64,000 bases of DNA from an uncultured Gammaproteobacteria bacterium (GTDB taxonomy: Bacteria; Patescibacteriota; Microgenomatia; Levybacterales; GWA1-39-11), in NCBI GenBank assembly GCA_964627245.1, contig CAZVGS010000004.1, positions 22,806-86,805 on the forward strand. Reading direction: 5' to 3'. A program made the position numbers and the translations under genes. The notes under the pieces are model-generated. The model had not been told where the DNA came from, made no database searches, and saw only the letters and a list, made by a program, of their open reading frames with translations. This document shows, one piece after another, positions 3-15,493 of this stretch (the stretch's first letter is position 1; every line of letters starts with the position of its first letter).

Positions 3-638
3 ATGGATGAGCTGACCAAATTCTTCCGACCGGAGCTTGTTAACAGGTTTGATGGTGTAGTCATCTTCAAGCCTTTAAGAAAAGAAGATATGAAAAAAAT
101 TGCAAAAATAAATATTGGCAAAACTGCAAAGCTCCTAAAGGAGCAAGGATATATTCTTGAGATAACAGAGCCAGCGCTTGAAAAGCTTGGAGATGAGGGT
201 TTTGATCCTGTTTATGGAGCGCGGCCACTAAGGCGCCTTATCCAAAATGCAATTGAAAATCCAATAAGTATTAAAATAATCGGACAAGAATTTATTGCCG
301 GGGATACAATACGTGTGGATTATGATGTGCAAAAAGGTGAATACGCTTTTCTAAAAATTACTCCCCAGCCCCAACAAGTTCAGGGGCAAGCACCATTACC
401 TGCCGATCCCAATCAACCCTCAATTCCCCCAACAAATGGTGCAGAAAATCCAATAAGCCAGACTCAACAACTTCCCCAGCTCCAAGGGATGATAGTAGAT
501 CCCTATACTCCGGTGCAAAATCCTATGGTGCCCGAGGCATTTAATCCGTTTGATGCTGACAATTCTTCACAATCATCAGTTCAGAATAACCCCCCGACAG
601 TTAACTCTGACGGGACTCAAATGCAGCCATCAAATTAA
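3..638 (+). CDS. C-terminal part of a Clp/Hsp100-family AAA+ ATPase (5'-truncated at window edge) with P/Q-rich disordered C-terminal tail
   Basis: ELVNRFDGVVIFKPLRKEDMKKIAK and C-terminal small-domain motifs typical of ClpB/ClpC D2. Nearly the same motif recurs in the 13103-15493 paralogue. The tail is Pro/Gln-rich. The ORF is open from the window start. Confidence 0.75.
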   Translation: MDELTKFFRPELVNRFDGVVIFKPLRKEDMKKIAKINIGKTAKLLKEQGYILEITEPALEKLGDEGFDPVYGARPLRRLIQNAIENPISIKIIGQEFIAGDTIRVDYDVQKGEYAFLKITPQPQQVQGQAPLPADPNQPSIPPTNGAENPISQTQQLPQLQGMIVDPYTPVQNPMVPEAFNPFDADNSSQSSVQNNPPTVNSDGTQMQPSN

Positions 639-641
639 CTT

Positions 642-1181
642 ATGGATTCTAATGTTAACCCTCCAGTTCAGGAACAGGCACCGTTAGAGGTTATTCCGCC
701 AGCACAGCAGCAGATTGAACAAAAAACAGCGTTTGGTAAGAAAAAAATTCTAATTATTGGCATAATAGTTTTTTTTCTCACTCTTATGGCGGGTGGAGGA
801 CTCTTGTTGTTTGTTGGCAATAACGCTAAAAAAACCCCAAACAATCCATCTAATACTTCAATGACAGCTACACCATCTCCGAAGACAGCTGAAAGTATTA
901 ATGAATTAATTGCGCTAAAAGCAAATGAGAAAACTAAGGTTCCAGGTTTGGAAATATACTTAACCTACATTGAATCAAACAACCCCAGCGAGGAATGTTT
1001 TGATTGTATTGCTTCAACAGCTGTCATAATTGAAAACGGAATAGAAACACAGGAACATGAGTATACGTGCGGTGGAATTGCTGGGGATTGTGTAAACTCT
1101 TTTGAAGAGTTTGGGTACGTTGTTGAACTCGTGCAAAAAATCGATAGCCAAACTATTCAAGTTCTTATAAAAAATAAATGA
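642..1181 (+). CDS. hypothetical membrane-anchored or secreted Cys-containing protein, translationally coupled to the downstream M4 protease
   Basis: N-terminal TM segment (ILIIGIIVFFLTLMAGGGLLLFV). Five Cys in the C-terminal half. The stop overlaps the next start (ATGA at 1178-1181). Confidence 0.5.
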   Translation: MDSNVNPPVQEQAPLEVIPPAQQQIEQKTAFGKKKILIIGIIVFFLTLMAGGGLLLFVGNNAKKTPNNPSNTSMTATPSPKTAESINELIALKANEKTKVPGLEIYLTYIESNNPSEECFDCIASTAVIIENGIETQEHEYTCGGIAGDCVNSFEEFGYVVELVQKIDSQTIQVLIKNK

Positions 1182-3139
1182 GTCTTCGCGAGTACAGTTC
1201 ACATATCAGAAGATGCACGCATAAACACTGGAAGATAATAACAGGAATTATTATTACCATTTTGTTTGTATTGGTTGGAATATTACCACAGCTTTTTTAT
1301 TCAGATAAAATATTTGATGCAAGCAAACTTACTTCATATTCAAAGATAAAAACGAGCGATAATAGAAGTTACTTTAATGTAAATAGCGAAAATGGCTATC
1401 TTTATAAATCAAATAAGATACATGAAGATGCTGTAAGGGATTTTTTAAGACAAAAATTTACAGATCAAGGTAAGTATATTGTTCCCGACGATATAGTGAA
1501 TAATAGCACCGTTATTAGAAGTGAAAAAAGTTCCAGTTTAACTAGTAACGAACACTATTTTCTAGAGCAGACATTAAATGGCATTCCTATATATGGCAGT
1601 TCTATCGTTGTCCATCTAAGAAATAAAAATGAAATATACTCAACATCAGGAAATATAATTTTAACAAAGGACACAACCTTACCTGTTTTATCAAAAGAAA
1701 GTGCAAAAGAAATAGCTTTAAATGATTCACTTATTTCTGTTCCATTACAGACATTTGTGATAAGAGATGAAAATACCATTTACTATAATAAAGGTTTACT
1801 TGAAGATGGGGAGGATTTTACAAACCGGATAGCCATTTCATTTTTTGTTGATTCTAATACTAAGCCAATTTATTACTCAACATTTTATATTGTTGATCTT
1901 GAGAATGGGGAAATATTATATAAAGAAGATCAATTGAAGGAATCGCTTAATAGAACAGTTTATAATTGCAGCGGCAGCAGTTGCAGCACTGCTGCAAGAA
2001 CAGAAGGGAGCTCATCGTCAGGAATTGCCGAAGCTGATTCTGCATACAATATTTTAGGAGATGTATATAATTTTTTCCTCCAAAGTTTTAATAGGGATAG
2101 CTTTGATGGAAATGGGGCCCCATATATTGCTTATGTCAATTTTCCAGGCATTAGTTCTATGCAATGTCCAAATGCTGCATGGACAGGTGCTGAGATGATC
2201 TTTTGTGCAGGGCTTGTAACTCCAGACATCTCATGGCATGAGCTTACTCATGCGATGACTAGCCGTACCGCAGGACTTAAATATGAAAAGCAGTCAGGTG
2301 CTCTTAACGAAAGCATCTCAGACATTTTTGCCACATCATCAGATAATAATTGGACAATAGGTGAAGGGTCAGCAATCGGTATTAAAAGAAGTGTAAGCGA
2401 TCCTCCATCAATACCAAAATCTCCAAGGCAGCCAGACAGATTATTTTCCAATTATTACTACTGCGGTGGATTGACAACGGTTTGCGACAAAAATGCCAAT
2501 GATATGTGCGGTGTACATATTAATAGTGGAATTATGAACAAAACATTTTACCTTATGACAGAAGGCGGAAACTTTAACGGATGTAATATATCAGGAATTG
2601 GCAGGAAAAGAAGTAATGACATAATATATTCAGCCTTAACAAACTATCTTACAAGTACGTCTAATTTTTATGACATGTATTCCTCAATTTTGCAGTCATG
2701 CGCAGATCTTTATGGATCAGGATCAGATATATGTAAGGAAGTTCAGAAGGCAGCTCAAGCAACAGAGCTGGACCAGCAAACCACAGGTTCGCAGGCAGGT
2801 CCTAGTTGTTCAGGCGCTGTAGCAAAACCTGCAACTTGCTCGGGAGCTCCAACCTCAGAACCTTTGCCAACATTGGCCGGGCTGCCCACCTCAACTCCAA
2901 CTCCTCCATTGGGTGCGACTTCAACTCCAACATTACCGCCCGGAACCACAGCAACTCCAACACCTACCCCGGTATCTGGGTCAGCTACTTCAACTCCAAC
3001 CCCTTCAGGCGGAATATTCAAGCCGAAGGGGACCCCAACTCCTACCCCTGATCAATATTTTAGTTGTGCACCGGACCCCAAATGTATAAGTAACGGAAAA
3101 AGTATTCAGCTATGTCCGCTTATATGTACTCCAAAGTGA
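1178..3139 (+). CDS. secreted/membrane-anchored zinc metalloprotease, thermolysin (M4) family, with Pro/Thr-rich linker and Cys-rich C-terminus
   Basis: HExxH motif (WHELTHAMT) followed by GALNESISDIFA, matching the thermolysin GxxNEAISD third zinc ligand. N-terminal TM anchor. C-terminal TPTPTP low complexity. Five Cys in the last 28 aa. Confidence 0.85.
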   Translation: MSLREYSSHIRRCTHKHWKIITGIIITILFVLVGILPQLFYSDKIFDASKLTSYSKIKTSDNRSYFNVNSENGYLYKSNKIHEDAVRDFLRQKFTDQGKYIVPDDIVNNSTVIRSEKSSSLTSNEHYFLEQTLNGIPIYGSSIVVHLRNKNEIYSTSGNIILTKDTTLPVLSKESAKEIALNDSLISVPLQTFVIRDENTIYYNKGLLEDGEDFTNRIAISFFVDSNTKPIYYSTFYIVDLENGEILYKEDQLKESLNRTVYNCSGSSCSTAARTEGSSSSGIAEADSAYNILGDVYNFFLQSFNRDSFDGNGAPYIAYVNFPGISSMQCPNAAWTGAEMIFCAGLVTPDISWHELTHAMTSRTAGLKYEKQSGALNESISDIFATSSDNNWTIGEGSAIGIKRSVSDPPSIPKSPRQPDRLFSNYYYCGGLTTVCDKNANDMCGVHINSGIMNKTFYLMTEGGNFNGCNISGIGRKRSNDIIYSALTNYLTSTSNFYDMYSSILQSCADLYGSGSDICKEVQKAAQATELDQQTTGSQAGPSCSGAVAKPATCSGAPTSEPLPTLAGLPTSTPTPPLGATSTPTLPPGTTATPTPTPVSGSATSTPTPSGGIFKPKGTPTPTPDQYFSCAPDPKCISNGKSIQLCPLICTPK

Positions 3140-3271
3140 CAAGACTCTAGCAATTAATGACTATAATTGCTAAAATATGGAACGGAAAAAGATTGTTTAA
3201 TGAATAAATTGTTTCACTGTTTCATTATTAAAACTTGGTATAGTAATTGAACAATCTAGCAATAATATACT

Positions 3272-4138
3272 ATGAATACTGATTATTACAAAACATTGGG
3301 TATCTCAAAGTCTGCAACGCAAGATGAAATAAAAAGAGCATATAGAAAACTTGCAGTAGAATATCATCCTGATAAAAACAAGACAAAAGAGGCTGAGGAA
3401 AAATTCAAGGAGATCAATCAAGCTTACGAAGTGTTGGGAAATCCTCAAAAAAGACAGCAGTACGATCAATTCGGTTCCCAAGCCTTTGAAAACGGAGGCC
3501 GTGGCGGTGCGGGCGGTCCTTTTGGCGGATTTGGGGGTCAGCAAGGACCTTTTTCTTACACTTATACCTCAAATGGTCAGGGGTATGATTTCGGGGGATT
3601 TTCGGACCCTTTCGATATATTTGAGCAGTTTTTTGGAGGAGCGTCTTCCCCATTTGGGAGAAGAAAACCAACATATTCTTTAAGAATTGACTTTATGGAT
3701 GCTGTTAAAGGTACGACCAAAACTGTTTCACTTGATGGAAAGAAAAAGGATATTAAAGTTCCGGCAGGAGTAAATGAGGGCTCAAGAATTCAATTCAATG
3801 ATTTTGACATAATAATATCGGTTTCCTCACACAATAAACTTAAGCGGGAGGGTTATGATATTATTTCTGAGCTTAAAATTCCAATGACAACGGCAGCCCT
3901 AGGAGGCATAGAGTCGGTTGAGACTGTATCAGGCAATGTGAAATTAAAAATTCCACAAGGAACACAGCCGGGTACTCTTATAAGAATAAAAGACAAAGGC
4001 GTTAAGAAAATTGGAGTTTCAGGACATGGAGACCACTATGTCAGAGTTCAGGTAGAGGTGCCTTCAAAACTTTCTTCAAAACAACGCGAAATACTTGAAG
4101 ATTTCTCTAAAGAATCAAATAAGAAGCGCTGGTTCTAA
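3272..4138 (+). CDS. DnaJ-class co-chaperone (J domain + G/F region, no Zn-finger; CbpA/type II-like)
   Basis: J-domain DYYKTLGISKSATQDEIKRAYRKLAVEYHPDKN with HPD motif. Gly/Phe-rich region. C-terminal substrate-binding domains without CxxCxGxG repeats. Confidence 0.85.
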   Translation: MNTDYYKTLGISKSATQDEIKRAYRKLAVEYHPDKNKTKEAEEKFKEINQAYEVLGNPQKRQQYDQFGSQAFENGGRGGAGGPFGGFGGQQGPFSYTYTSNGQGYDFGGFSDPFDIFEQFFGGASSPFGRRKPTYSLRIDFMDAVKGTTKTVSLDGKKKDIKVPAGVNEGSRIQFNDFDIIISVSSHNKLKREGYDIISELKIPMTTAALGGIESVETVSGNVKLKIPQGTQPGTLIRIKDKGVKKIGVSGHGDHYVRVQVEVPSKLSSKQREILEDFSKESNKKRWF

Positions 4139-4214: not shown

Positions 4215-4691
4215 TTATCTTGTAACTGAAATTACTGCGCCTCCTTCAGCATCTGGAGCTGTTACAGTTACTCTTCCTGCTGCTGTCTGAAGAATTTCAT
4301 ATTGTGTGTCATAGTCTTCGCATCCATCTCCATCACCATCAACATCCCAAGCTCCTGTTTGTGGATCTACAGGTAGTTGTGCGATATATTGAGGGGCAAT
4401 ATCCGGACATAGGTCTACATCTCCACCGACTGTATCACTTCCAATATTTGTTGCTGTTGCCGGAATTGCTAGCGGCGTTAAATCACCATTATTATCGACT
4501 GCAAATTGCCATACACCGTTGAGGATAGCATTAACATCGCTTGCCCTTTGGGTGTTATTGGCTTGTTCAAATTGTCTTGCAGGATTTATGGCGATAAGAG
4601 TAATGGCAAGAAGGACAGCTAAGATTCCAATAACAACAAGAAGCTCAATAAGTGTAAACCCTTTTTGGAATTTAGCGCGGGCAGTTTTCAT
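4215..4691 (-). CDS. type IV pilin (prepilin with N-terminal methylation motif, C-terminal disulfide loop)
   Basis: N-terminus KGFTLIELLVVIGILAVLLAI (class III signal, Glu at +5). Two Cys near the C-terminus form the D-region. Confidence 0.85.
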   Translation of the reverse strand: MKTARAKFQKGFTLIELLVVIGILAVLLAITLIAINPARQFEQANNTQRASDVNAILNGVWQFAVDNNGDLTPLAIPATATNIGSDTVGGDVDLCPDIAPQYIAQLPVDPQTGAWDVDGDGDGCEDYDTQYEILQTAAGRVTVTAPDAEGGAVISVTR

Positions 4692-4762
4692 ATCTATTTA
4701 ATGATAACCATAATTAAAAAACCTTGTCAATAGGCAAATTTTGCCTCAAATACAACTCATGA

Positions 4763-5452
4763 TCACATTCGAAGAAGCATTATTCCAAGAATAGCAAAAA
4801 GAACAATAAAAATTCCCAACATAGTATAAAGTCTAACGTTTGGTTTTTTTGATTGTGTAGCACCTTTTTTATCTGGAAAATTTTGTGTTACTGTTTTAGT
4901 TCTTTCTACTGGAATCATATTAAATTGCTTTAGGTGATCGGTGCGCTTTAGAAGTTGTGATGCATTTTCGGTCGTCAAATTTCTTATTAAGCCTTGATCT
5001 TGTCCAAGCATCTGGTAAGGAATTACCCAGTCAATTGAGAAAAAGCACTTCTCGAATCCTAGTTTTAGTTCCCTGTATACATCATAGTTGGCTGCTATCA
5101 CTTTGACGTCTTTTTCAATTGTGTACTCTTTTGATAATGCGCTCTCGAATGGGACAGTATCCAAAAATTTATCAACCTCTTCCTTCAAATCTTCCCGGCT
5201 AAGATTCATAAAATCCTTTTCAAAAGTTATGTTGGGGGAGAGAAGCATTGTTATAGATGCAGGAGCTAATTGATATTGGTCTACAAAACTTTTTATCTGA
5301 TTTATCAGTGAAGCACCATTTATGACATCCATGTCTCTGACTGAAGTTGAGAGGAATGCAAGGCTTACGACAAGAGTTAGACCTGTTTCGTAAAAATAAA
5401 ATCCATTTTTATCCAGATACAAAAATCCTGGTTGTTTTTTTACAAAATCCAT
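4763..5452 (-). CDS. hypothetical tail-anchored membrane protein inside the pilus operon (possible pilus assembly accessory protein)
   Basis: C-terminal TM segment (LYTMLGIFIVLFAILGIMLL). Sits between pilin genes on the same strand. No recognisable motif. Confidence 0.45.
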   Translation of the reverse strand: MDFVKKQPGFLYLDKNGFYFYETGLTLVVSLAFLSTSVRDMDVINGASLINQIKSFVDQYQLAPASITMLLSPNITFEKDFMNLSREDLKEEVDKFLDTVPFESALSKEYTIEKDVKVIAANYDVYRELKLGFEKCFFSIDWVIPYQMLGQDQGLIRNLTTENASQLLKRTDHLKQFNMIPVERTKTVTQNFPDKKGATQSKKPNVRLYTMLGIFIVLFAILGIMLLRM

Positions 5453-5533
5453 ATTATGAAAATTTCTAAGTACTGTAATTTCTAATTAATCTAGGTTTAT
5501 AAATCAGGTCAATTAGGTTAATTAGTAATTTAT

Positions 5534-5905
5534 TCATATCTCCTTCCATGAAGTAGCAGTTAGAGTGTTATTACTCGTATCAACTATTACTTGTATTGTT
5601 CTTGTAAAATTATTGACGGTACCTTTTGATATAACCGTTTTTGGATTAGTTCCGTTAACAGTTATGACTGCTTCTCCATTCTCAATCGTAAGAGTCTCGC
5701 CACTATAATCCGGATCTCTTAGTAATTTAATCATAGCAGTTTCTGCGCCACTTTCCGCAATGTTTAATGAGTTTGAGCCTTGATAAACTTTATCTGTTCC
5801 TGTCGAACTGTTTATAACAAGAGCTATCGACGCAGTTGTAACAACGACCGCAATGACCATATATATAAGTAAAATTACCAGTGTTTGGCCTTTTTGTTTT
5901 CTCAT
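5534..5905 (-). CDS. minor pilin-like protein (degenerate prepilin N-terminus)
   Basis: N-terminus KGQTLVILLIYMVIAVVV resembles a prepilin leader plus hydrophobic helix but lacks Glu+5. 4-nt overlap with the upstream pilin gene. Confidence 0.5.
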   Translation of the reverse strand: MRKQKGQTLVILLIYMVIAVVVTTASIALVINSSTGTDKVYQGSNSLNIAESGAETAMIKLLRDPDYSGETLTIENGEAVITVNGTNPKTVISKGTVNNFTRTIQVIVDTSNNTLTATSWKEI

Positions 5906-6417
5906 CTTAAGCCTGCTGTTGTTTGAAAATTTTGTTCGTCGGCAATTCCTTCTTTTCTGATATTTCCGGAAATCGTAAAATTTATTCTGACGGTATCTTT
6001 TGCACTATCTGTTCCTACTTTCGTAAAAACCAAATCTGAGATAGATGATCCATAGCCGTTAAGATTGAACGTGCCACTTGGATTTGATGTCACTAAGTTC
6101 CCGCTGCTTGTTGAATATGTATGATTTTCGCCATTAATAACGAGTACCAAATTCGCTGAAGAACTGCCGAATAACGCAGGTTCAATTATTGAATCGGCTC
6201 TTCCGACATCATATATAAAGCGCGAATATATATATCTTCCATCATCGGCTACATTTGATGTATTTGTAGAACTTAGCTGATTTTCTATTATTGCAATAAA
6301 TATCTGCGTGAATATTACGATAAGAATTGTTAGAAGACCCATATATATAAGAAGTTCGACTAAAGTAAATCCCGATTGACTCTTAGCGGATGGATTGGAT
6401 TTATGTTCTTTCATCAT
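5902..6417 (-). CDS. minor (pseudo)pilin with prepilin-type N-terminal cleavage/methylation motif
   Basis: SGFTLVELLIYMGLLTILIVIF motif. ATGA overlap with the giant pilin-like gene. Confidence 0.8.
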   Translation of the reverse strand: MMKEHKSNPSAKSQSGFTLVELLIYMGLLTILIVIFTQIFIAIIENQLSSTNTSNVADDGRYIYSRFIYDVGRADSIIEPALFGSSSANLVLVINGENHTYSTSSGNLVTSNPSGTFNLNGYGSSISDLVFTKVGTDSAKDTVRINFTISGNIRKEGIADEQNFQTTAGLR

Positions 6418-9383
6418 GGCGAGTAGTTAAATGAAGTATCCAGTATTGTTGGCGTAACATTATTGTCGGTTGTCGAGAAAAACGCTTTGTATTTGACGCA
6501 CTGTGCCGGATTCTGAAATCCTGAAACACCGCTTAAAGGTATGCTTCCTCCTGTTGATGGAAAGCGAGTCGTGTTGGTGCCGTCGGGTCCTACAAAAGTG
6601 TAGGTTGAATTACTGCAAGACCCGCTAACAGGCAAGGTTGCTGCAACTTGAAACTCAAGAGTAGTGTTAGCAGGAGTTGTTGAGTTAACGCTCAGTCTGT
6701 TCAAAGCAACAACTGAGCCCAAATCTTGAATTGCAGATTCGTACGTCCCGGAGCTTAGATATGTACCATCAGGACCTCCTTGTATAATTTGAAGTTCGTT
6801 ATCGGCAGTGTTTCCTATCATATAAACGAATCTGTCTCCATCCAGTTCGGAAACCGACGTAAGATCATTAAATCCCGAGTCAAATTGAACTCCACCGCAG
6901 TAAGTTGGTGTCAACTCGTTACTTGTATTCAGTACTTGGTACTCGCGTGTATTATTTGAGTCAGATGTTCCGTCTTTTCCTACAAGAACAGCACGAAGAC
7001 CTTCAAAAACTGTAAGTGATCTCCGGGGGAACAGTTGGGCATCAGCACCGCTTCCATAGTAAAAGCCGCTTGTAGGTCCCGTTGAAGGACTTCCTGATAG
7101 AAATGACGGCGAATTTTTGTTGGAAGTATTTAGAATGTAAAATTGCATGCTATCAGGATCATTGTCATTGTTTGAGTCAATGCCGCCGTTTGAGGAAATA
7201 TAAGCTCTAGTTCCATCGCCAGTTCCATAAACCGAATTTGCTGCTTCTTCAGTTCCTGAATCGGAATTAAAATCATATGAGCTTATCCTTTTCCAATTAC
7301 TATTTCCGCCCGATATCCTTCCGCAAGCGCTGTCGCTGATAGCGGGGGAGGATGATGTCGTTGGAATGTCGGTAACGTTAACGATGTTAAATTCGGGATT
7401 TGTTCCGGCACCAACCGCAACATAAACATACGTATCAGTTCCAACCCTGACAGGATAAATGTCGTTGCTTGCATAAAGCTCTATATTTCCTCCATCAGAA
7501 CAATCAAGGTGTACAGGGGAAGTTGTATCAGACCAGCTTGTCCCCGTCTGGCCTTGGCTATATTTTCTATCAGTACCTGAACCCGGATTGCAGTCATAAC
7601 CGTCAAGCTGGATTCTACAGCCTATCATATCCAGTCCTTGCGAGGTTGTTTTGCCGTCAATGTTTGACAGATCAAAAACGTAAAGATAACCCCCCGAAGT
7701 TACGTACCCGCGGTCATTTAATACCGCAAGAGAAGTGCCCCCGTATCCGAAAGGCGCTTGGTCGTTGAGATCTCCCCCGCTGTAATGTATTTTGACAGCT
7801 GCCCAGTCGAGATAGAAATCCCGGGATGTACTGCTTGCAACATTAACAACTCTGAGCCTAAAGTTGGAATTGCTTAAGTCGCTTTCAGACCAACTGTGTC
7901 CCCAGTCATCAGAAGATCCACCGAGAGTGTAGGATGCTTCCGAGGTAGAGAGAGTAGGCGTTGATTGGGCATTTGTCCAGGTGTTTCCGCCATCCCAAGA
8001 TAGTTCAACGCACATTCTCGGGGAGTTTGAGGTACTGTCTACCCGAGCGTCAAGCCTTACTTCAATTCCCTCTATTGATGCACCCGAGGGAACAGGCAAG
8101 TTGTAATTGTAGTATCTGTGCTTATCCTTATCAGTCCCCGTGCAATTTGTTCCTGTGCCGTTACCGCTATTGCTGTCTATAGCAAAAGACCCGTTATCGG
8201 TATAGCCTCTATTCGCATTTGACTGAAAGCCATCATTATCTCCGCCATTGTCGTCAGTATTAGAACTTGGATTTTGAAATCCCGTATCGTGAGATCCGGC
8301 AGTATTGAACATGTTTGTATTGAAGAAAGTCTTGTATTTATAGATTCCGTTAATATAGTCTTGGTACTCGCCGTTATTAGTAGTGTCGTTACTGCCGTTA
8401 TTATCATCCACAAGTACTGCAATTACTTCGCGGTCAGCTTTTGAAGTTGCAATGAGAGCGTACATATTTTCAGAAGATGATCTGTAATATTGAATTGCAT
8501 TCGTTTTGTAATTATTGTCAATGCCGGGGCTCGTTGGAACCAGTCCGGGGTCGCTGTACTTTGCCGGATCAAGTGTAAATATGCCTCTAAGCGAAGGTGA
8601 GGGAATTTCCGTATCCGCAGTGACAAGTATATGCGACATTTTCACGGATGTTGAATCGGTGGGAGAAGTAGCAACAAAAGTCTGATTTGGGGTAGCAATG
8701 CTTGTAGCACTTGCAGTTGCAATGACTGCGACGGGAGGACCATCGGGAAGAGAAATTGTTGCAGAGGAAAAAGCAGGGGAGCACCATTGTCCTTTAGTGT
8801 TTGTAGATAGCCTTACTTCTCCGCCGGTTGCATCAGCAACTTCGGTAGTTGCGTAAATTCCCTCGTCAAAATCCTCAACGCTTGTTTGGGTTTGCGCTTC
8901 ATTTGCAAGATAGCGTGTAACGTATATAGTTGAATCAACAGAAGAATTATAGGGCTGACCCCAGGTAACACTTATATCAACGCGTTTTGTTGACGGATCA
9001 AGGCTTCCTCCTGTTTCGACGACAACTCCATTTGAGTCCCGGTAAACATCGCTTACAGTTATGCTTCTTGTAAAATCATTTATGGTTTCATCACCTGAAG
9101 CAAGGGACCAAGACGTGCCGGAAATTTGCGGGTGATAATCTCCATTCACAGCAAATATTCCCCATCCCTGATTTCTCACATTTCTCACAACTTCCTCTGC
9201 TTCTTTCATAAGAGCGATTGCCTGAACCCTTTGTCCTTGCTGTGCCTTGCCTTGTTTTGAGGAAATGAGTCCTGTCAGCAAAGCAGGCAGCATAATTGCC
9301 GTTATTGCTATTACTAACAATATCTCAACAAGCATTTGACCCCTGCTATTTTTGATTTTATTCGAAATTGGTAACTGTGCCAT
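6414..9383 (-). CDS. giant (989 aa) prepilin-like protein, S/T/N/G/D-rich; candidate pilus-tip adhesin / PilY1-analogous minor pilin
   Basis: N-terminus RGQMLVEILLVIAITAIMLPALL has Gly, a hydrophobic helix and Glu+5. The long remainder is low in hydrophobic residues and rich in Ser/Thr/Asn/Gly/Asp. Embedded in the pilB-pilC-pilin operon. Confidence 0.7.
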   Translation of the reverse strand: MAQLPISNKIKNSRGQMLVEILLVIAITAIMLPALLTGLISSKQGKAQQGQRVQAIALMKEAEEVVRNVRNQGWGIFAVNGDYHPQISGTSWSLASGDETINDFTRSITVSDVYRDSNGVVVETGGSLDPSTKRVDISVTWGQPYNSSVDSTIYVTRYLANEAQTQTSVEDFDEGIYATTEVADATGGEVRLSTNTKGQWCSPAFSSATISLPDGPPVAVIATASATSIATPNQTFVATSPTDSTSVKMSHILVTADTEIPSPSLRGIFTLDPAKYSDPGLVPTSPGIDNNYKTNAIQYYRSSSENMYALIATSKADREVIAVLVDDNNGSNDTTNNGEYQDYINGIYKYKTFFNTNMFNTAGSHDTGFQNPSSNTDDNGGDNDGFQSNANRGYTDNGSFAIDSNSGNGTGTNCTGTDKDKHRYYNYNLPVPSGASIEGIEVRLDARVDSTSNSPRMCVELSWDGGNTWTNAQSTPTLSTSEASYTLGGSSDDWGHSWSESDLSNSNFRLRVVNVASSTSRDFYLDWAAVKIHYSGGDLNDQAPFGYGGTSLAVLNDRGYVTSGGYLYVFDLSNIDGKTTSQGLDMIGCRIQLDGYDCNPGSGTDRKYSQGQTGTSWSDTTSPVHLDCSDGGNIELYASNDIYPVRVGTDTYVYVAVGAGTNPEFNIVNVTDIPTTSSSPAISDSACGRISGGNSNWKRISSYDFNSDSGTEEAANSVYGTGDGTRAYISSNGGIDSNNDNDPDSMQFYILNTSNKNSPSFLSGSPSTGPTSGFYYGSGADAQLFPRRSLTVFEGLRAVLVGKDGTSDSNNTREYQVLNTSNELTPTYCGGVQFDSGFNDLTSVSELDGDRFVYMIGNTADNELQIIQGGPDGTYLSSGTYESAIQDLGSVVALNRLSVNSTTPANTTLEFQVAATLPVSGSCSNSTYTFVGPDGTNTTRFPSTGGSIPLSGVSGFQNPAQCVKYKAFFSTTDNNVTPTILDTSFNYSP

Positions 9384-9846
9384 ATTTGTTAAGAGTAATA
9401 GTCTCGGTTGATCCGCTTGGAATATTTGTGATGGTTATAGAATTTGAACCGTCAATAAAATTTACTACCTCACCGCTATCTGACGCGAAAAGAACCGCAT
9501 CATTTTGAAATGTGGAGGAAAGACTGTATGACTCAGGAATCGGAACTGAAAAATTCGCCGTATCCGCCGGATTGTACTCTATACCATGAAACATTATATA
9601 TTGATCTGATAGGACTTTTATGCCGTAGTTGTCAGGTTCTCCCCGTCCTTCGGTGTCTCCAACCATAGCCTTTATTTGCTGAGTTTTGAGATCCGATATA
9701 AGGACAGTTGTTGCGGAACTGCTGGTTGCCACAATTTGTATATTTGACAAACTCACAATTCCTATTCCAAAAAGAAGAGACAATATTCCTATAACGAGCA
9801 TAAGCTCGATCAGCGTAAGTCCTCTTTGTCTTTCAAGTGCTTTCAT
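9358..9846 (-). CDS. type IV pilin / pseudopilin (prepilin N-terminal motif)
   Basis: RGLTLIELMLVIGILSLLFGIGIV motif. Sits directly downstream of pilC. Confidence 0.8.
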   Translation of the reverse strand: MKALERQRGLTLIELMLVIGILSLLFGIGIVSLSNIQIVATSSSATTVLISDLKTQQIKAMVGDTEGRGEPDNYGIKVLSDQYIMFHGIEYNPADTANFSVPIPESYSLSSTFQNDAVLFASDSGEVVNFIDGSNSITITNIPSGSTETITLNKYGTVTNFE

Positions 9847-10917
9847 CTAGCGTATACCAACCTGACCTATTAGACCGTAAATAGGTGCAATGATTGAGAG
9901 CATCATCCCTCCTACAAGTACGCCAACAAAAATAAGCATAATTGGTTCAAGAAGAGTAGTTAATGTCTTTAAGGTTTTGTCAACTTGATAGTCTAAATAT
10001 TCAGCTACATCTTTCATTGACTTATCAAGAGAACCGCTTTTTTCTCCTGCTTCCGTAATTTTTATCATAATACTCGGGAATACATCCTTGGCCTGCTTAA
10101 GTCCTTCGGATAGTTCGCTTCCTGCAAGAACAACCTCTTTGCAATGGAGAATAGATTTGGCAACGTCTTTTTTTAGGACTACATCCTGGGCAAGTTCAAG
10201 AGCTGCGGCAATCGGTATTCCGGCATTGAGCAGTAAATACAGGCTTCTGGCAAATCTTGTTATATCAATTTGCGTTGCCAATGTTGAAACAAGTGGAAGC
10301 ATAAATAAGAAATGCAAAAATTCCCTTTTTTTCTCCCTATACAAAACAAAAATTAAAACTGCAGTTATGACTGTCCCTAGAGCAACAAAAAGTGTGTAGT
10401 TTGTTACTAGTTGTGACAAACCGATCAGCATCTTGGTCGGTAAAGGCAGGTCTGCGTTAAGGCGTAAAAATACGTTTGATATTTTTGGCACAACAACTAT
10501 TAGTATCATAAGAAGTACTCCGGCAAAAACAAACATGATAAGTACAGGATATGTTAGCGCGCCTTTTATTTTATCTGTGAATTCGGAATCTTTTTTTATT
10601 GAAGATTTAAGATCTTCCAGGGTTACATCTAGAGTTCCCGCTTCTTCAGAAGCTTTTATGAGATTGACAGTTATATTGTCAAAGATTCTGGGAAATTTGG
10701 CGAAAGCATCCGCGACGTGATTTCCTTGAGAGAGATCTGCTTTTAACGATTCCAAAAATCGCCTCTGGTTGCCTTTGGCGTCTTCCAAAAGTGAATCAAC
10801 TACTTCAAGAATCGGAATTCCTGCAGCAAGCATAGTTGCAAGGTTGCTGACAAGACCAAGTTTGTCTGCAGTAGATATCCTTAATTTTTTTGGATCCGAG
10901 CTATTGAATAACTGCAT
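9847..10917 (-). CDS. pilC: type IV pilus assembly platform protein PilC (GspF family)
   Basis: Polytopic membrane protein with the duplicated GspF-type cytoplasmic domains. Lies immediately after pilB with a 5-nt gap. Confidence 0.85.
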   Translation of the reverse strand: MQLFNSSDPKKLRISTADKLGLVSNLATMLAAGIPILEVVDSLLEDAKGNQRRFLESLKADLSQGNHVADAFAKFPRIFDNITVNLIKASEEAGTLDVTLEDLKSSIKKDSEFTDKIKGALTYPVLIMFVFAGVLLMILIVVVPKISNVFLRLNADLPLPTKMLIGLSQLVTNYTLFVALGTVITAVLIFVLYREKKREFLHFLFMLPLVSTLATQIDITRFARSLYLLLNAGIPIAAALELAQDVVLKKDVAKSILHCKEVVLAGSELSEGLKQAKDVFPSIMIKITEAGEKSGSLDKSMKDVAEYLDYQVDKTLKTLTTLLEPIMLIFVGVLVGGMMLSIIAPIYGLIGQVGIR

Positions 10918-10922
10918 AGATA

Positions 10923-12611
10923 TTAAAGACTTTCAACTTTTGTCACGCGAAGGACTTCTTCAAGCGTGGTTACACCGCGCGCAACTTTATCCATACCATC
11001 GGCAAGCATTGTCGTCATTCCCTCCTCAACAGCTTTTTTTGCAATAACATCTGAGTCATTTTTAGCTGTAATAAGAGCTCTTACTTCTTTAGTTACTTCC
11101 AGAACTTCAAAAAGACCAAGCCTGCCGGAATATCCTGTCGAGTGGCAAATTTTGCACCCTTTACCTCTATAGAGCTTAATGCTTTCACTTTGACCGAAGT
11201 GATGCGTGATTACCGCAGGGGGTAAATTTTTTGCAAGGTCTGATCTTAGTATGGAATAAGACATTTTACACATGTCGCAAATTTTCCTGATAAGTCTTTG
11301 TGCGACAATAACATTGACGGTTGATGCGACAAGGAAAGGTTCAACTTTCATATCTATCAGACGGGGAAGAGCAGTTGCAGCATCATTTGTATGGAGCGTT
11401 GACAATACCAAATGTCCTGTCAAAGCTGCATTAACGGCGATGCCTGCGGTTTCGCTGTCTCTTATTTCTCCCACAAAAACAACATTCGGATCCTGCCGGA
11501 GTATGGAGCGCAGGCCATTTGCGAAAGTAAGGTCTGTTTTTTGGTTTACGTTGATTTGATTGACTCCTTTAATTCTATATTCCACTGGGTCTTCGATTGT
11601 TGTAATGTTTTTTTCCCTTGTATTTAGAATTTTAAGAATAGCGTAAATTGAAGTAGTTTTTCCGCTGCCTGTCGGGCCTGTTGAGAGAACCATGCCGTAG
11701 GATTTTGTGTATGCATTCGTTACTTTTTTAAGATCGCTTTCGCTCATCCCCAAGTCAATTAAGGAAAATTGTCTGAAGTGTGATGCAAGAAGTCTTAAAA
11801 CCGCTTTTTCTCCATCGGCAATCGGTAAGACAGAAACCCTGATATCCAAATTCTCTTCTTCAAGTTTTATGCGCATCTTTCCATCCTGAGGACTTAGATG
11901 TTCATCAGTCCTTAATTTAGACAAAATTTTTATTCTTGAGATGATTCTTTCGTGAAAGTTTTTTGGAAGGTACAAAACATCATGCAGTATCCCGTCGATC
12001 CTAAATCTTACAAGCGAGTCTTTTTCTTCAGGTTCTATATGAATGTCCGAGACCTTATCTTGATAACCGAATTCAACTAGAAGGTTCACAATTTTTTCAA
12101 TCGGGGCTGCATCAGTAACCTTTGATATATCAGAAATTCCCAGCTCTCTTTGAAGCAATTGTTCGAATGATCTTTGAAGATCGCGTTTGTATATCCTTAA
12201 AATATTTTCGATATCGCGTTCGGTAGTAAGATAGGGAATAACTTTTAGACTTGATTTTTTGCTTATGCCCGTTAGTACCTCTATTTTTCTGGGATCAACT
12301 ATTGCAACCTTGAGTCCCTGTTGGGTTCTTTCAAAAGGTATAACCTTGTGTTTTCTTGCAATTTTTTCGGGAACAATTCTAAAAACGTCTTCCGGTATGG
12401 AAATCTTGGAAAGTACAACGAATGGAATATGGAGGAAATCAGCAATAAGTATTCCCAGATTCTCGTCCGAAATCACATCTTTCTCGATCAACGCGTCGGC
12501 GAGTGTTACATTGGAGTTTTTTGCAAATTCTGCCAGTTCTTGAAGATCACGCTCAGTGGCAAGACCTGTTTTTAGAATTAATGCTCTGATCTGATCATCA
12601 GCTAGAACCAT
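10923..12611 (-). CDS. pilB: type IV pilus assembly ATPase PilB (GspE family)
   Basis: GspE N-domain. Walker A LSTGPTGSGKTTS. Asp box VGEIRD. His box. Tetracysteine Zn motif CDMC...CKIC. Confidence 0.9.
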   Translation of the reverse strand: MVLADDQIRALILKTGLATERDLQELAEFAKNSNVTLADALIEKDVISDENLGILIADFLHIPFVVLSKISIPEDVFRIVPEKIARKHKVIPFERTQQGLKVAIVDPRKIEVLTGISKKSSLKVIPYLTTERDIENILRIYKRDLQRSFEQLLQRELGISDISKVTDAAPIEKIVNLLVEFGYQDKVSDIHIEPEEKDSLVRFRIDGILHDVLYLPKNFHERIISRIKILSKLRTDEHLSPQDGKMRIKLEEENLDIRVSVLPIADGEKAVLRLLASHFRQFSLIDLGMSESDLKKVTNAYTKSYGMVLSTGPTGSGKTTSIYAILKILNTREKNITTIEDPVEYRIKGVNQINVNQKTDLTFANGLRSILRQDPNVVFVGEIRDSETAGIAVNAALTGHLVLSTLHTNDAATALPRLIDMKVEPFLVASTVNVIVAQRLIRKICDMCKMSYSILRSDLAKNLPPAVITHHFGQSESIKLYRGKGCKICHSTGYSGRLGLFEVLEVTKEVRALITAKNDSDVIAKKAVEEGMTTMLADGMDKVARGVTTLEEVLRVTKVESL

Positions 12612-12735
12612 AGGCAGTAATTGTTAGTACTTAAAGCCGGTTTTTCATACAAAAACCACAGCTTTGAAAAGCACAACTATGAGGTAATCATACTATATTC
12701 GAAGAGTATGGTACAAGAACATCCATCCTTGATTT

Positions 12736-13143
12736 ATGCGGATTTCCTGCCTAAACTGGGTTAAGGGGTATTGTGCCCAAATACTTTCGATGACTGCCTT
12801 TTTATATTACCCATTATTTCTAGTTGAATTCTGGTATAAAGACGTATTATTTGGTCTTATAAATTTTTTTGTCCGCTTTAACCGCTATGTAATTTCTCTA
12901 TTATCATTAGGTCTTTTAACAAGAACTTTTTTCAAGCCCTTAAAAAATGAATACAGAGAGGGCTTGGTTGTGTTCTCGATTTTTTTCGGAATGGCAATAA
13001 AGACGGTACTTATAAGTGTTTTATTAAGTATCGTTCTCATCTTTATTCTGATTGAGTGTTTGATAGTTGTATTGATAGCCTTTATCCCGGTAGCGCTTTT
13101 GTTTGTTGTATTGGGAAGCGATTCTCATGTTTGGTATGAATAA
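12736..13143 (+). CDS. small polytopic membrane protein (hypothetical); overlaps by 41 nt, in another frame, the hydrophobic N-terminus of the ClpC-like gene
   Basis: Three to four predicted TM helices. A long ORF in an AT-rich background. Whether it is a separate gene or a frameshift/fusion with 13103-15493 cannot be decided from sequence. Confidence 0.45.
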   Translation: MRISCLNWVKGYCAQILSMTAFLYYPLFLVEFWYKDVLFGLINFFVRFNRYVISLLSLGLLTRTFFKPLKNEYREGLVVFSIFFGMAIKTVLISVLLSIVLIFILIECLIVVLIAFIPVALLFVVLGSDSHVWYE

Positions 13144-15493
13144 ATATTATTTTCTATATTACTTTTTTGACAATCCGGTTATACGCTGGGTCAGGGTAGT
13201 AATTTTTCTTGGAGTTGGTTTGTTTGTTTACTTAAATCTTGAAAATCCCTTGCTTATTCTAAAATTATTGCCTGTGTATTTTGTTCTTATTCTTCAAGAA
13301 TTATTTATTCATTTCAAATTGGAGAATGCAAAGCCTCTTATGACAATCCATGATGATATAAATCATTCAATAGATACAGTCGAGTATAGAATGCGCTCTA
13401 TCCTTGAAAGAATAGACGACACTAAAAAGGTTATTCATGAAATTTCAGGTGACAGTGAAATTAAGTATTTATTAAGACTCTTAAATATAAATCCTGAAGT
13501 AACAGAAAACATTAATGAGGAAAATCTGCTTAGAAAAGCGTACACGTTAGTTATGAAAGTGGGAGGTAAGAATATCCACCCCATTGATATATTTGTTGCT
13601 TATTTAATTCTTCAGGATCAGATAACCAAGAATCTTTACAACAATGAAATAACCGAATTCGATGTGGTCACATTGCTTTCTTGGGTAAGAAGAAAATACA
13701 GAGTCGATATGCAAAAGCACGACGGGCTGCATTTCACAGGCAGCGGTGTTTTTGATTTTTTTGTATACGGCTGGAGCGCAGAGCTCTCGCGCTATGCTTC
13801 AAATTTCACAAGAGAAGTACTTTCTGGCAGACACCCAGAGCCTATCGGAAGAAATAGGGAATATGACCTTTTAGTAACTGCCTTATCCAAAAGTTCATCC
13901 AGTAACGCCTTGATTGTTGGTGAACCTGGAGTTGGAAAAACAACGCTTATATCCCAATTGGTTTTGGATTCAAATTTAGGCAATTTGCCCAATAAATTAT
14001 CAAACAAGATAGTTTTTAAATTTTCCCCTGAAAGATTACTTTCAGGTGTTAACAATCAAGGGGAGTTAGAGGAAAGATTAGTTAGTCTGATCTCTGAGTT
14101 ATATCATGCGGGGAATATTGTCGTTTACATTCCTAATATTGAAAATATTTTTGGCGGAGGAGGGCTTAGTATGGATTTGTCAGGTGCTTTAAGTGAATAC
14201 CTAAAAAGCAGTAGGATAAAAATAATTGGCAGTACAACTGAGGCATTTTATAAAGAATATATTTATCCAAAACAGGAATTAAAGGATCTATTTGATATAG
14301 TTGCGGTTAGAGAGCCAAATGAGGATGGTGCAATATTTATGCTTCTTGAGAAAGCTAATGAGATTGAGATGGAAAGTGGTGTCAAAATAAGCTTTGATGC
14401 AATAAAAAGCACATATTCATTGTCTGACTCATATATTAACGATGGAACGGTTCTTCCCGGGCGGGCAGTAAAACTTCTTGAGGATGTTGTGTCTTATGCA
14501 TCAATTCATGGAGACAGAAAAATAACAAAGAAAAATGTACAAAGCCTTGTTGAGGAAAAAACAAAAATTCTTCTGTCAGAACCGACTCAGGAAGAAAGTG
14601 AAGAACTTCTTAATCTTGAAACCGAACTTCATAAAGATGTTGTTTCTCAAAATGAAGCAATCAGTGCAATTGCCGATGCTATGAGAAGAATCAGAAGCGG
14701 AATTAGTAATGAAAAAAAACCGATTGCATCTTTTCTTTTTTTGGGTCCAACGGGTGTGGGTAAGACCGAAGCGGCGAAATCACTTGCCAAATCGTACTTT
14801 GGTGATGAAAAAAAAATGGTAAGGCTTGACATGACAGAATTTCAAAGTCCCGATTCGGCAAAAAGGTTAATTGAAGAAGGGGAAATATTTGTCGGCAAAG
14901 TTTTGGAAAACCCATTCACCGAGATACTTTTAGATGAATTTGAGAAAGCTGATCCGGATGTGCACAACCTGTTTCTTCAAATCCTTGATGAAGGGAGTAT
15001 GACCGATAGTTTGGGAAGGAGTATTTCATTTAAGAATTCAGTAATAATTGCTACTTCAAACGCCGGCAGTGAATTTATTAGAGAAACATACAGAAATTCA
15101 GCAGACCAGTTGGCATTTAAGGACAAACTAGTTGAAAAGATACTTAAAGATGGGATTTTCAGGCCAGAGCTTATTAACAGATTTGATGATGTAATTGCCT
15201 TCAAGCCACTTGAGAAAGAAGATGTCACAAAGGTTTCAAAGCTTTTCTTGGATGAGTTAGGCAGTAGGCTTTCTGAAAAACAAATAAACCTCTCTTATGA
15301 CGAAGCGGTGTGCGTATATATAGCTGAAAATGCTTACAGCATAGAATTTGGAGCAAGAAATATAAGAAGGTTTATCCAGCAATCCATAGAAAATCAAATT
15401 TCAAAGCTTATCCTTTCAAATGAGCTGAATAGTCAAGATACCGTGAAAATTTCAGTAGAGAATAACAGTCTTGTTATTGGTAAGCAAATTTAA
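13103..15493 (+). CDS. ClpC/ClpB-like double-ring AAA+ ATPase with hydrophobic (membrane-embedded?) N-terminal extension and degenerate D1 Walker B
   Basis: D1 Walker A IVGEPGVGKTTLISQL. D2 Walker A LFLGPTGVGKTEAAKSLA and Walker B ILLDEFEKADPDVHNLFLQILDEG. C-terminal ELINRFDDVIAFKPLEKEDV. The first ~75 codons are hydrophobic (2-3 TM) and the true start may be internal. The D1 region lacks an obvious hhhhDE Walker B. Confidence 0.8.
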   Translation: MLYWEAILMFGMNKYYFLYYFFDNPVIRWVRVVIFLGVGLFVYLNLENPLLILKLLPVYFVLILQELFIHFKLENAKPLMTIHDDINHSIDTVEYRMRSILERIDDTKKVIHEISGDSEIKYLLRLLNINPEVTENINEENLLRKAYTLVMKVGGKNIHPIDIFVAYLILQDQITKNLYNNEITEFDVVTLLSWVRRKYRVDMQKHDGLHFTGSGVFDFFVYGWSAELSRYASNFTREVLSGRHPEPIGRNREYDLLVTALSKSSSSNALIVGEPGVGKTTLISQLVLDSNLGNLPNKLSNKIVFKFSPERLLSGVNNQGELEERLVSLISELYHAGNIVVYIPNIENIFGGGGLSMDLSGALSEYLKSSRIKIIGSTTEAFYKEYIYPKQELKDLFDIVAVREPNEDGAIFMLLEKANEIEMESGVKISFDAIKSTYSLSDSYINDGTVLPGRAVKLLEDVVSYASIHGDRKITKKNVQSLVEEKTKILLSEPTQEESEELLNLETELHKDVVSQNEAISAIADAMRRIRSGISNEKKPIASFLFLGPTGVGKTEAAKSLAKSYFGDEKKMVRLDMTEFQSPDSAKRLIEEGEIFVGKVLENPFTEILLDEFEKADPDVHNLFLQILDEGSMTDSLGRSISFKNSVIIATSNAGSEFIRETYRNSADQLAFKDKLVEKILKDGIFRPELINRFDDVIAFKPLEKEDVTKVSKLFLDELGSRLSEKQINLSYDEAVCVYIAENAYSIEFGARNIRRFIQQSIENQISKLILSNELNSQDTVKISVENNSLVIGKQI

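Follow-up and report, generated by a model that had tools for sequence, protein, structure and literature searches.

The DNA considered here, hereafter the window, is a 64,000-nucleotide (nt) stretch of contig CAZVGS010000004.1 (positions 22,806 to 86,805; assembly GCA_964627245.1), labelled an uncultured Gammaproteobacteria bacterium and placed by GTDB in the Levybacterales of the Patescibacteriota. Two adjacent genes on its plus strand encode a small membrane protein of 117 amino acids (aa) and a membrane-anchored Clp/Hsp100-like ATPase with two AAA+ rings, D1 and D2. Classed by its motifs, the ATPase is an undescribed variant of the Clp/Hsp100 superfamily, a member by its fold and its D2 ring that nonetheless falls outside ClpB, ClpC, ClpA and ClpV. 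The features of the pair are listed below, with the basis of each in brackets; residue counts here and throughout refer to 72 species-level sequences or to a separate set of 117 cluster representatives, and structural assignments to models from AlphaFold2 (AF2).

12790 to 13143, plus strand: gene for the small membrane partner, 117 aa (start from homologues; 121 homologues aligned)
13136 to 13143, plus strand: start/stop overlap ATGAATAA, 8 nt (read from the sequence; identical in the independent assembly L001)
13136 to 15493, plus strand: membrane-anchored Clp/Hsp100-like double-ring AAA+ ATPase, 785 aa plus stop (alignments, Pfam, AF2, Foldseek)
13175 to 13321, plus strand: two transmembrane (TM) helices, aa 14-33 and 38-62 (hydropathy, AF2 helices)
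13358 to 13705, plus strand: helical N-domain, aa ~75-190, divergent, putatively Clp_N-like (hhalign, AF2)
13919 to 13945, plus strand: D1 Walker A GEPGVGKTT, retained (alignment)
14051 to 14059, plus strand: D1 pore-loop position, NNQ against KYR, with no aromatic residue (alignment)
14120 to 14137, plus strand: degenerate D1 Walker B, VVYIPN against the canonical hhhhDE (alignment)
14282 to 14293, plus strand: lost D1 arginine fingers, KDLF against (E/Q)RRF (alignment)
14744 to 14767, plus strand: D2 Walker A GPTGVGKT (Lys in 72/72)
14864 to 14917, plus strand: D2 pore-loop-1 region RLIEEGEIFVGKVLENPF, 18 aa against the canonical 27 aa, without GYVG (alignment, AF2)
14924 to 14950, plus strand: D2 Walker B ILLDEFEKA, intact (Asp and Glu in 72/72)
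15053 to 15187, plus strand: D2 sensor-1 TSNAG, a short linker at the position of the ClpP-docking loop, and the arginine finger NRFD (alignment, AF2)
15350 to 15358, plus strand: D2 sensor-2 GAR (alignment)

The open reading frame (ORF) listing of the window gives 13103-15493 (796 codons, TTG start) and 12736-13143 (135 codons) in different frames, from which a preliminary description of this DNA had taken a 135-aa membrane ORF that overlaps the start of the ATPase by 41 nt. The ORF exists and lies in another frame, but homologues shorten both genes. The N-termini of ATPase homologues, in four close relatives and then in more than 100 full-length sequences, read M-x-N-x-YYFLYYFFDN, and because they align at the Met encoded by ATG 13136, this codon is taken as the start of a 785-aa protein; ATG 13127, used by public gene calls, may be an alternative start. 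Homologues of the upstream ORF open with M-x-AFLYYP, which is matched in the window by ATG 12790 (MTAFLYYP..., 117 aa), so that the upstream gene spans 12790-13143 and the ORF from ATG 12736 exceeds it by 18 codons. With both starts corrected in this way, the true gene overlap is 8 nt (ATGAATAA).

ORFs that overlap in different frames, and the existence of fused versions in other lineages, would also suit a single membrane-anchored Clp gene split by a frameshift, whether through sequencing error, decay to a pseudogene or programmed frameshifting, and the preliminary description had left the choice between two genes and one open. An independent Logan assembly (L001) contains 701 nt across the junction that are 100% identical to the window, and L003-L006, which are related loci, likewise have a stop and then a start between the two genes, in relative frames that differ. 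A survey in which one genome per GTDB species was scanned yielded 80 loci with the small gene, and in 80/80 of them a Clp-like ORF of this family follows directly on the same strand. Stop/start junctions are found in 77/80 and all three frame relations occur; the commonest types are an ATGA overlap (n=34) and a one-nucleotide gap (n=12), nearly all others lie in the range from -32 to +7 nt, with a fusion at a single locus (L082). Because the junction is identical in an independent assembly and stop/start junctions exist in all three frames, partner and ATPase are two translationally coupled genes. A frameshift is scarcely tenable: across the five close and 80 species-level loci the pattern is a stop and then an ATG in three frames, mostly as ATGA or with a gap of 1-3 nt, the homologous ATPases share a starting Met, and the natural fusions drop the first transmembrane helix (TM1) of the ATPase, which a read-through product in the window would retain and so be unlike them.

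The natural partner-ATPase fusions comprise the proteins P0101 (872 aa), P0104 (819 aa) and P0108 (821 aa) as well as locus L082. In the three proteins the small-protein module is joined through a single hydrophobic helix, against two in the split ATPase, to the N-domain, D1 and D2. Since the two products are joined into one polypeptide in a few lineages, they probably act together, an argument of the 'Rosetta stone' kind.

The domain content of the ATPase is that of a Clp protein. Pfam recognises AAA_2 (PF07724, 5.8e-40), ClpB_D2-small (PF10431, 5.8e-22), AAA_lid_9 and the D1 P-loop, with no match to Clp_N (PF02861) in the window ATPase, and among solved structures it is matched best by T. 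thermophilus ClpB and B. subtilis ClpC, at about 1e-103. The AF2 model, built on a 70-sequence alignment (pLDDT, the predicted local distance difference test, 87.4; pTM, the predicted template-modelling score, 0.76), places a short helix at residues 3-11, TM-length helices at 14-33 and 38-62, a helical N-domain at roughly 78-187, a less confident linker, and then D1 and D2; Foldseek matches it to ClpC, ClpB and ClpA protomers at 31-34% identity and a target-normalised TM-score of about 0.8.

The N-terminus is where this protein departs from its soluble relatives. It had been described as an extension of some 75 codons with two or three hydrophobic helices, too long an open stretch to be expected by chance, and the extension is indeed conserved and translated as part of the protein, at 32-89% identity in more than 100 full-length homologues, which place the start before both TM helices and not at a Met beyond the hydrophobic region. 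Its content is corrected to two TM-length helices adjoined by one short amphipathic helix. Within the second TM helix (TM2), Glu55 is invariant in the 70-sequence alignment. The N-domain that follows aligns with the Clp_N domain of canonical Clp proteins from the candidate phyla radiation (CPR) at an hhalign probability of 76% (E 2e-5, 85 columns), and the alignment of ClpA to the ATPase begins at ClpA residue 83.

The two rings have fared very differently. The Walker A motifs of D1 (GEPGVGKTT) and D2 (GPTGVGKT) and the Walker B of D2 (ILLDEFEKA) are intact, as first described, and in D2 the Walker A Lys, the Walker B Asp-Glu, the sensor-1 Asn and the arginine finger are each present in 72/72 sequences and the sensor-2 Arg in 71/72; among cluster representatives the D2 catalytic residues are conserved in 115-117 of 117. 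The impression that D1 is degenerate and has no evident hhhhDE Walker B was correct and can be extended, for the arginine fingers and the pore-loop tyrosine are lost too. Alignments with ClpB and ClpC structures and with the canonical Clp paralogue of the same genome agree in placing YIPN where FIDE is expected, so that the missing Walker B is not a matter of misassignment. That paralogue shares 33% identity with the ATPase, in an alignment that is ungapped where an M-domain would be, and has LLFIDE against VVYIPN at the D1 Walker B, QRRFQ against KDLFD at the arginine fingers (RR replaced by DL) and SHRGEFE against NNQGELE at the pore loop. Across the family, the position of the D1 Walker B Asp is Pro in 61/72 species-level sequences and the arginine-finger positions hold Arg in 0/72, while the P-loop Lys is K in 69/72 and R in 3/72.

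Lost D1 motifs and degenerate pore loops might be expected of a paralogue in decay, which would linger as a scaffold or pseudo-enzyme of no catalytic importance until it disappears. Such decay is improbable here, given D2 catalytic residues that are conserved in 71-72 of the 72 species-level sequences and nearly as strictly among the cluster representatives, strong purifying selection on the TM hairpin, the N-domain and the partner motif, and a full-length ORF that has been kept in more than 100 lineages.

Further changes are found in the parts of the protein through which Clp proteins engage substrates and partners. The D2 pore-1 region (RLIEEGEIFVGKVLENPF) is reduced from 27 to 18 residues in the window protein, and AF2 leaves a four-residue turn alone between helices 574-580 and 585-591; across the family the region ranges from 15 to 27 residues, is rich in Gly, Ser and acidic residues, and retains GYVG in 1/72 species-level sequences. 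No M-domain is present, as residues ~420-468 of ClpC and ~440-520 of ClpB have no counterpart and the ClpB alignment splits there; ClpA aligns in a single stretch, which also points to an absent M-domain. Between D2 sensor-1 and the arginine finger there is no [ILV]-G-[FL] ClpP-docking tripeptide, the family consensus being [ED]-G-[VKI]; the VGF stretch of ClpC is gapped against the window ATPase, and AF2 shows a three-residue turn at this place. Databases know this conserved component only as 'ATP-dependent Clp protease ATP-binding subunit' or 'hypothetical protein', and the first name is probably misleading because the ClpP-docking element is absent.

These losses bear on whether the protein is an ordinary threading Hsp100 tethered to the membrane, an FtsH/Msp1-like extractor or disaggregase that would draw membrane or aggregated proteins through its pore and possibly pass them to ClpP or work with DnaK/DnaJ. 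The overall fold and D2 are those of ClpB and ClpC, the gene adjoins dnaJ/dnaK and a canonical Clp, some relatives keep Tyr-Val/Ile in the D2 loop, and the window protein itself has F585-V586-G587. Against this, the D1 pore position is aromatic in 3/117 cluster representatives and in none among the residues listed for the 72 species-level sequences, the D2 loop varies greatly in both length and sequence across the family, the IGL/VGF loop and the M-domain are absent, D1 is predicted to be unable to hydrolyse ATP, and no protease gene is a conserved neighbour over the 80 loci. A threading role is thus rather unlikely, and of the 'membrane-tethered Hsp100 unfoldase' first proposed, the membrane-anchored ClpB/C-like protein stands and the unfoldase is doubtful, both aromatic pore loops, the M-domain and the ClpP loop being missing.

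The same features set the ATPase apart from each named Clp subfamily. It has the tandem AAA+ modules of class I Clp/Hsp100 proteins, with a Clp-type D2 and D2-small domain, and lacks the Walker B and arginine fingers of a competent D1 as well as aromatic pore-1 loops. Its scores reach the cutoff of no named Clp family in NCBIfam, and they lie far below those for ClpB (TIGR03346, 432 bits against 1232), ClpA (TIGR02639, 393 against 993) and ClpV/TssH (TIGR03345, 339.6 against 884.95), and likewise for ClpK and ClpG. In addition, ClpB has an M-domain and ClpA an IGL loop that are absent here, the neighbours of the ATPase are chaperone, pilus and housekeeping genes where ClpV would have a type VI secretion context, and neither the short M-domain of ClpC (the MecA site) nor its VGF loop has a counterpart. 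Beyond the membrane anchor, the domain order is shared with ClpB, ClpC and ClpA, namely N-domain, D1 (large domain plus AAA_lid_9), D2 (AAA_2) and D2-small; D2 is most like that of ClpB, and the absence of an M-domain is common to ClpA. The differences from all three are the two N-terminal TM helices, the loss of the D1 motifs, the removal of GYVG, the lack of a ClpP-docking tripeptide, and a dedicated gene for a small membrane partner.

The partner belongs to a family of 1165 clusters of 'hypothetical proteins', roughly 100-125 aa long, and has no match in Pfam, NCBIfam or PADLOC. Of the partner matches listed, at least 25 lie on contigs of the same size as those of ATPase matches. In 121 aligned sequences, 98-100% conservation is found at P8, F14-W15, N31, S39, T46, F48, P50, K52-N53-E54-Y55-R56 and G58-L59-V60, and further at F62-S63, G67, K71, E89 and P100, with Y16 and K49 conserved at 91%; the conserved motif is TFFKPLKNEYRxGLVxFS, of which the KNEYRxGLVxFS part is almost invariant. 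The N-terminal half is amphipathic and rich in aromatic residues. Only residues 57-115 exceed the Kyte-Doolittle TM threshold, forming one hydrophobic block of about 50 residues with space for about two helices, in place of the three or four clear TM helices attributed to the ORF at first. As the conserved Lys and Arg residues all precede residue 72, the positive-inside rule would put the motif loop in the cytoplasm.

By the searches made here, the ATPase-partner family is confined to Patescibacteria. An exhaustive profile search with the TM-plus-N-domain module recovered 70 of 1.84 billion 50%-identity representatives, the full-length ones being 778-832 aa long; a word-indexed search with the N-terminal 248 aa gave four truncated matches and understated the family in comparison with the full-length and exhaustive profile searches. 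Named sources are Candidatus Levybacteria/Levyibacteriota, Woykebacteria, Microgenomates, Parcubacteria and 'Patescibacteria group'. More distant patescibacterial relatives (P0111-P0124) show 32-39% identity over lengths of 804-941 aa, and they suggest a larger membrane-anchored Clp-like group that may include the window family as a single branch. In the literature found, whose coverage is incomplete, neither a membrane-anchored bacterial Hsp100 nor this ATPase family is described.

Some smaller observations attach to these records. P0111-P0124 have differing N-terminal TM arrangements, a degenerate D1 Walker B and no GYVG, and P0122 carries an extra zinc-ribbon-like CxxC...CxxC start together with a Pfam Clp_N match. 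Among L014-L093, many of the GTDB representative records bear the title 'uncultured Gammaproteobacteria bacterium', with Methylomirabilota, Sulfotelmatobacter, Limnocylindrales, Lysobacterales or Nanoarchaeia in a few others; such titles are probably placeholders or the result of mis-binning.

The pair tends to occur next to core chaperone and housekeeping genes. Of the 80 loci, 35 have NusA on the downstream side, while 27 have DnaJ and 15 have DnaK upstream. In L007 a fused form follows hrcA-grpE-dnaK-dnaJ and precedes nusA-infB, and L010 is similar; L008 and L009 have the order canonical Clp, small protein, S8 protease, DnaJ, partner, ATPase, 2-hydroxyacid dehydrogenase, polyprenyl synthase. 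The gene order of the window matches that of L008/L009, but the protease is of type M4, and dnaJ is separated from the pair by a type IV pilus cluster on the minus strand (4215-12611), which encodes several N_methyl pilins, a pilin-like protein of 989 aa, PilC and PilB. Here, as in the closest relatives, the pair and the pilB-pilC-pilin genes are transcribed in opposite directions away from each other, as might suit an accessory ATPase of the pilus or competence apparatus. PilB is nearby in 12/80 loci, however, all twelve being close relatives of the window, and distant members keep the flanks (DnaJ upstream, 2-hydroxyacid dehydrogenase or NusA downstream) without pilus genes, so that the cluster looks like an insertion and a pilus function for the pair is improbable. 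The pilus region of some relatives also carries Hpt and response-regulator genes.

Fixed synteny bears equally on the idea that the ATPase serves in anti-phage defence, like the ClpB-like DolB of Dodola, or in some other mobile accessory system, an idea raised by a PADLOC match to DolB at E 2.6e-34. This match spans generic Clp D2 sequence only, the partner matches nothing in PADLOC (no search aimed at DolA was made), the site of the pair among housekeeping genes (dnaK/dnaJ ... nusA/infB) is constant from species to species, and no mobile-element or other defence genes lie beside it in the loci examined; a defence role is very improbable.

The reading preferred here, at a probability of roughly 0.55, is that the pair forms a Patescibacteria-specific membrane-embedded AAA+ machine, found in Levybacteria and other Microgenomates, a D2-driven remodeller that acts with the small partner. 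The ATPase would form a hexamer held at the membrane by its two N-terminal TM helices, D1 would bind nucleotide without hydrolysing it and serve for assembly or regulation, in the manner of NSF-D2 or p97-D1, and D2 would be the sole motor. The small protein would be an obligate membrane partner or adaptor contacting the TM hairpin and the Clp_N-like domain, and ATP turnover in D2 would remodel either this partner or a membrane-associated client, with no threading into ClpP and no M-domain cooperation with DnaK. The position beside hrcA-grpE-dnaK-dnaJ and the canonical Clp suggests a role in membrane proteostasis.

Several points weigh against this reading. The hexamer, the binding of the partner, the inactivity of D1 and the non-threading mode are all drawn from sequence, and the synteny with dnaK/dnaJ and nusA could be mere conserved housekeeping gene order. 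About half of the species-level sequences have E or D at the second position of the D1 Walker B, so that residual D1 activity is possible in some family members. An aromatic-hydrophobic pair (PGEEYVPN, for example) is kept in the D2 loop of 18/72 species-level sequences and 41/117 cluster representatives, so that substrate threading may persist in ancestral or sister forms; the case for a non-threading mode is strongest for the window protein and its clade and weaker for the 'EEY[VI]P' relatives. The window ATPase also has 'IFVG' at aa 584-587, which resembles an aromatic-hydrophobic-Gly pore motif. As a retained pore motif it is probably coincidental: IFVD stands there in a relative of 89% identity, the consensus of the family reads hydrophobic-x-[DE]-K, and in the AF2 model the residues fall within a helix. 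Finally, the odd number of helices in the natural fusions conflicts with the positive-inside topology of the partner, and the conflict remains in the AF2 model of the fusion P0108, in which residues 56-124 are one continuous helix.

A division of labour like that proposed for D1 and D2 is familiar from NSF, p97/Cdc48 and Pex1/Pex6, in which one ring acts as the motor and the other, binding nucleotide but hydrolysing little or none of it, lends the hexamer stability; these proteins differ in belonging to the classical AAA clade, in being soluble, and in having active rings with aromatic pore loops. N-terminal TM anchors are likewise known from FtsH, Msp1/ATAD1 and Bcs1, where they hold a hexameric or heptameric AAA+ ring at the membrane for work on membrane proteins. 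FtsH has a protease domain and an MFVG pore loop, and the Bcs1 ring acts without canonical threading. All of these have a single classical-clade AAA ring, with no Clp-type D1-D2 body and no such partner.

The nearest functional analogue of the pair, by analogy only, is Torsin with LAP1/LULL1. Torsins are Clp/Hsp100-related AAA+ proteins, associated with the membrane through an N-terminal hydrophobic segment and devoid of aromatic pore loops, and they work with the small membrane-spanning partners LAP1/LULL1 (PMC5425593). A search of the Protein Data Bank (PDB) with the window ATPase D2 returned no Torsin match at E<=0.01, and the comparison is kept as analogy for that reason. Torsin, of the eukaryotic endoplasmic reticulum and nuclear envelope, has one AAA+ module and borrows its arginine finger from the cofactor, whereas the window ATPase is bacterial and cytoplasm-facing and has two rings with a D2 finger of its own.

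Pressed further, the analogy gives a tentative picture in which the pair is a bacterial counterpart of non-threading membrane AAA+ proteins (Torsin-LAP1 or Bcs1-like), a hexamer of ATPase and partner whose membrane helices, roughly 24-36 in all, form a ring, with its conformation driven by D2 alone through a channel devoid of gripping loops. Such a ring might gate a conduit, or might assemble or disassemble a membrane or cell-surface complex peculiar to the ultra-small episymbiotic Patescibacteria, and its functional core would be the KNEYRxGLVxFS loop, K71 and E89 of the partner with Glu55 in TM2 of the ATPase.

The textbook picture of Hsp100/Clp motors is that of soluble machines which thread their substrates. 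A membrane-integral Clp family with a single working ring, no conserved pore tyrosines and a small partner would extend the known roles of the Clp scaffold, and the pair would offer a prokaryotic system in which to ask how Clp relatives without pore loops, such as the Torsins, turn ATP hydrolysis into work. For the biology of Patescibacteria, it points to a conserved component, particular to this lineage, that adjoins the core chaperone genes.

Signals for the regulation of the pair were sparse. A promoter and terminator scan of the window gave results at chance level, so that TTGAAA-16-AATCAT at 12664-12691 is only a candidate promoter, and a search for inverted repeats in the intergenic region gave nothing convincing. 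No CIRCE/HrcA operator was found within the window, which argues against a direct regulatory link to the heat-shock regulon.

The canonical Clp paralogue with which the ATPase was compared enters the window only by its end:

3 to 638, plus strand: C-terminus of the canonical Clp paralogue, 211 aa, with D2-small and a P/Q-rich tail of about 90-100 aa (Pfam)

As the preliminary description had recognised, this is a Clp paralogue with a P/Q-rich tail; its full length, recovered in L012 (1508-4306) and L013, is 932 aa and includes Clp_N. The paralogue is itself atypical, having SHR and not KYR in the D1 pore loop, no M-domain, and a P/Q/A-rich insert of about 60 aa in D2 at the position of the ClpP-docking loop of ClpA/ClpC; its Walker B, arginine fingers and GYVG are intact. 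It heads a conserved island (642-4138 in the window, 499-6629 in L008/L009) that comprises the canonical Clp, a small TM protein, a secreted protease and DnaJ, in which the protease differs by lineage, being M4 thermolysin-like with a Thr/Pro-rich C-terminus in the window and S8 subtilisin-like in L008/L009. Over the greater part of the window, from about 14 kb to its end (14001 to 64000), nearly all 2-kb intervals show a positive GC skew, the cumulative skew rising from 0.06 to 2.5.

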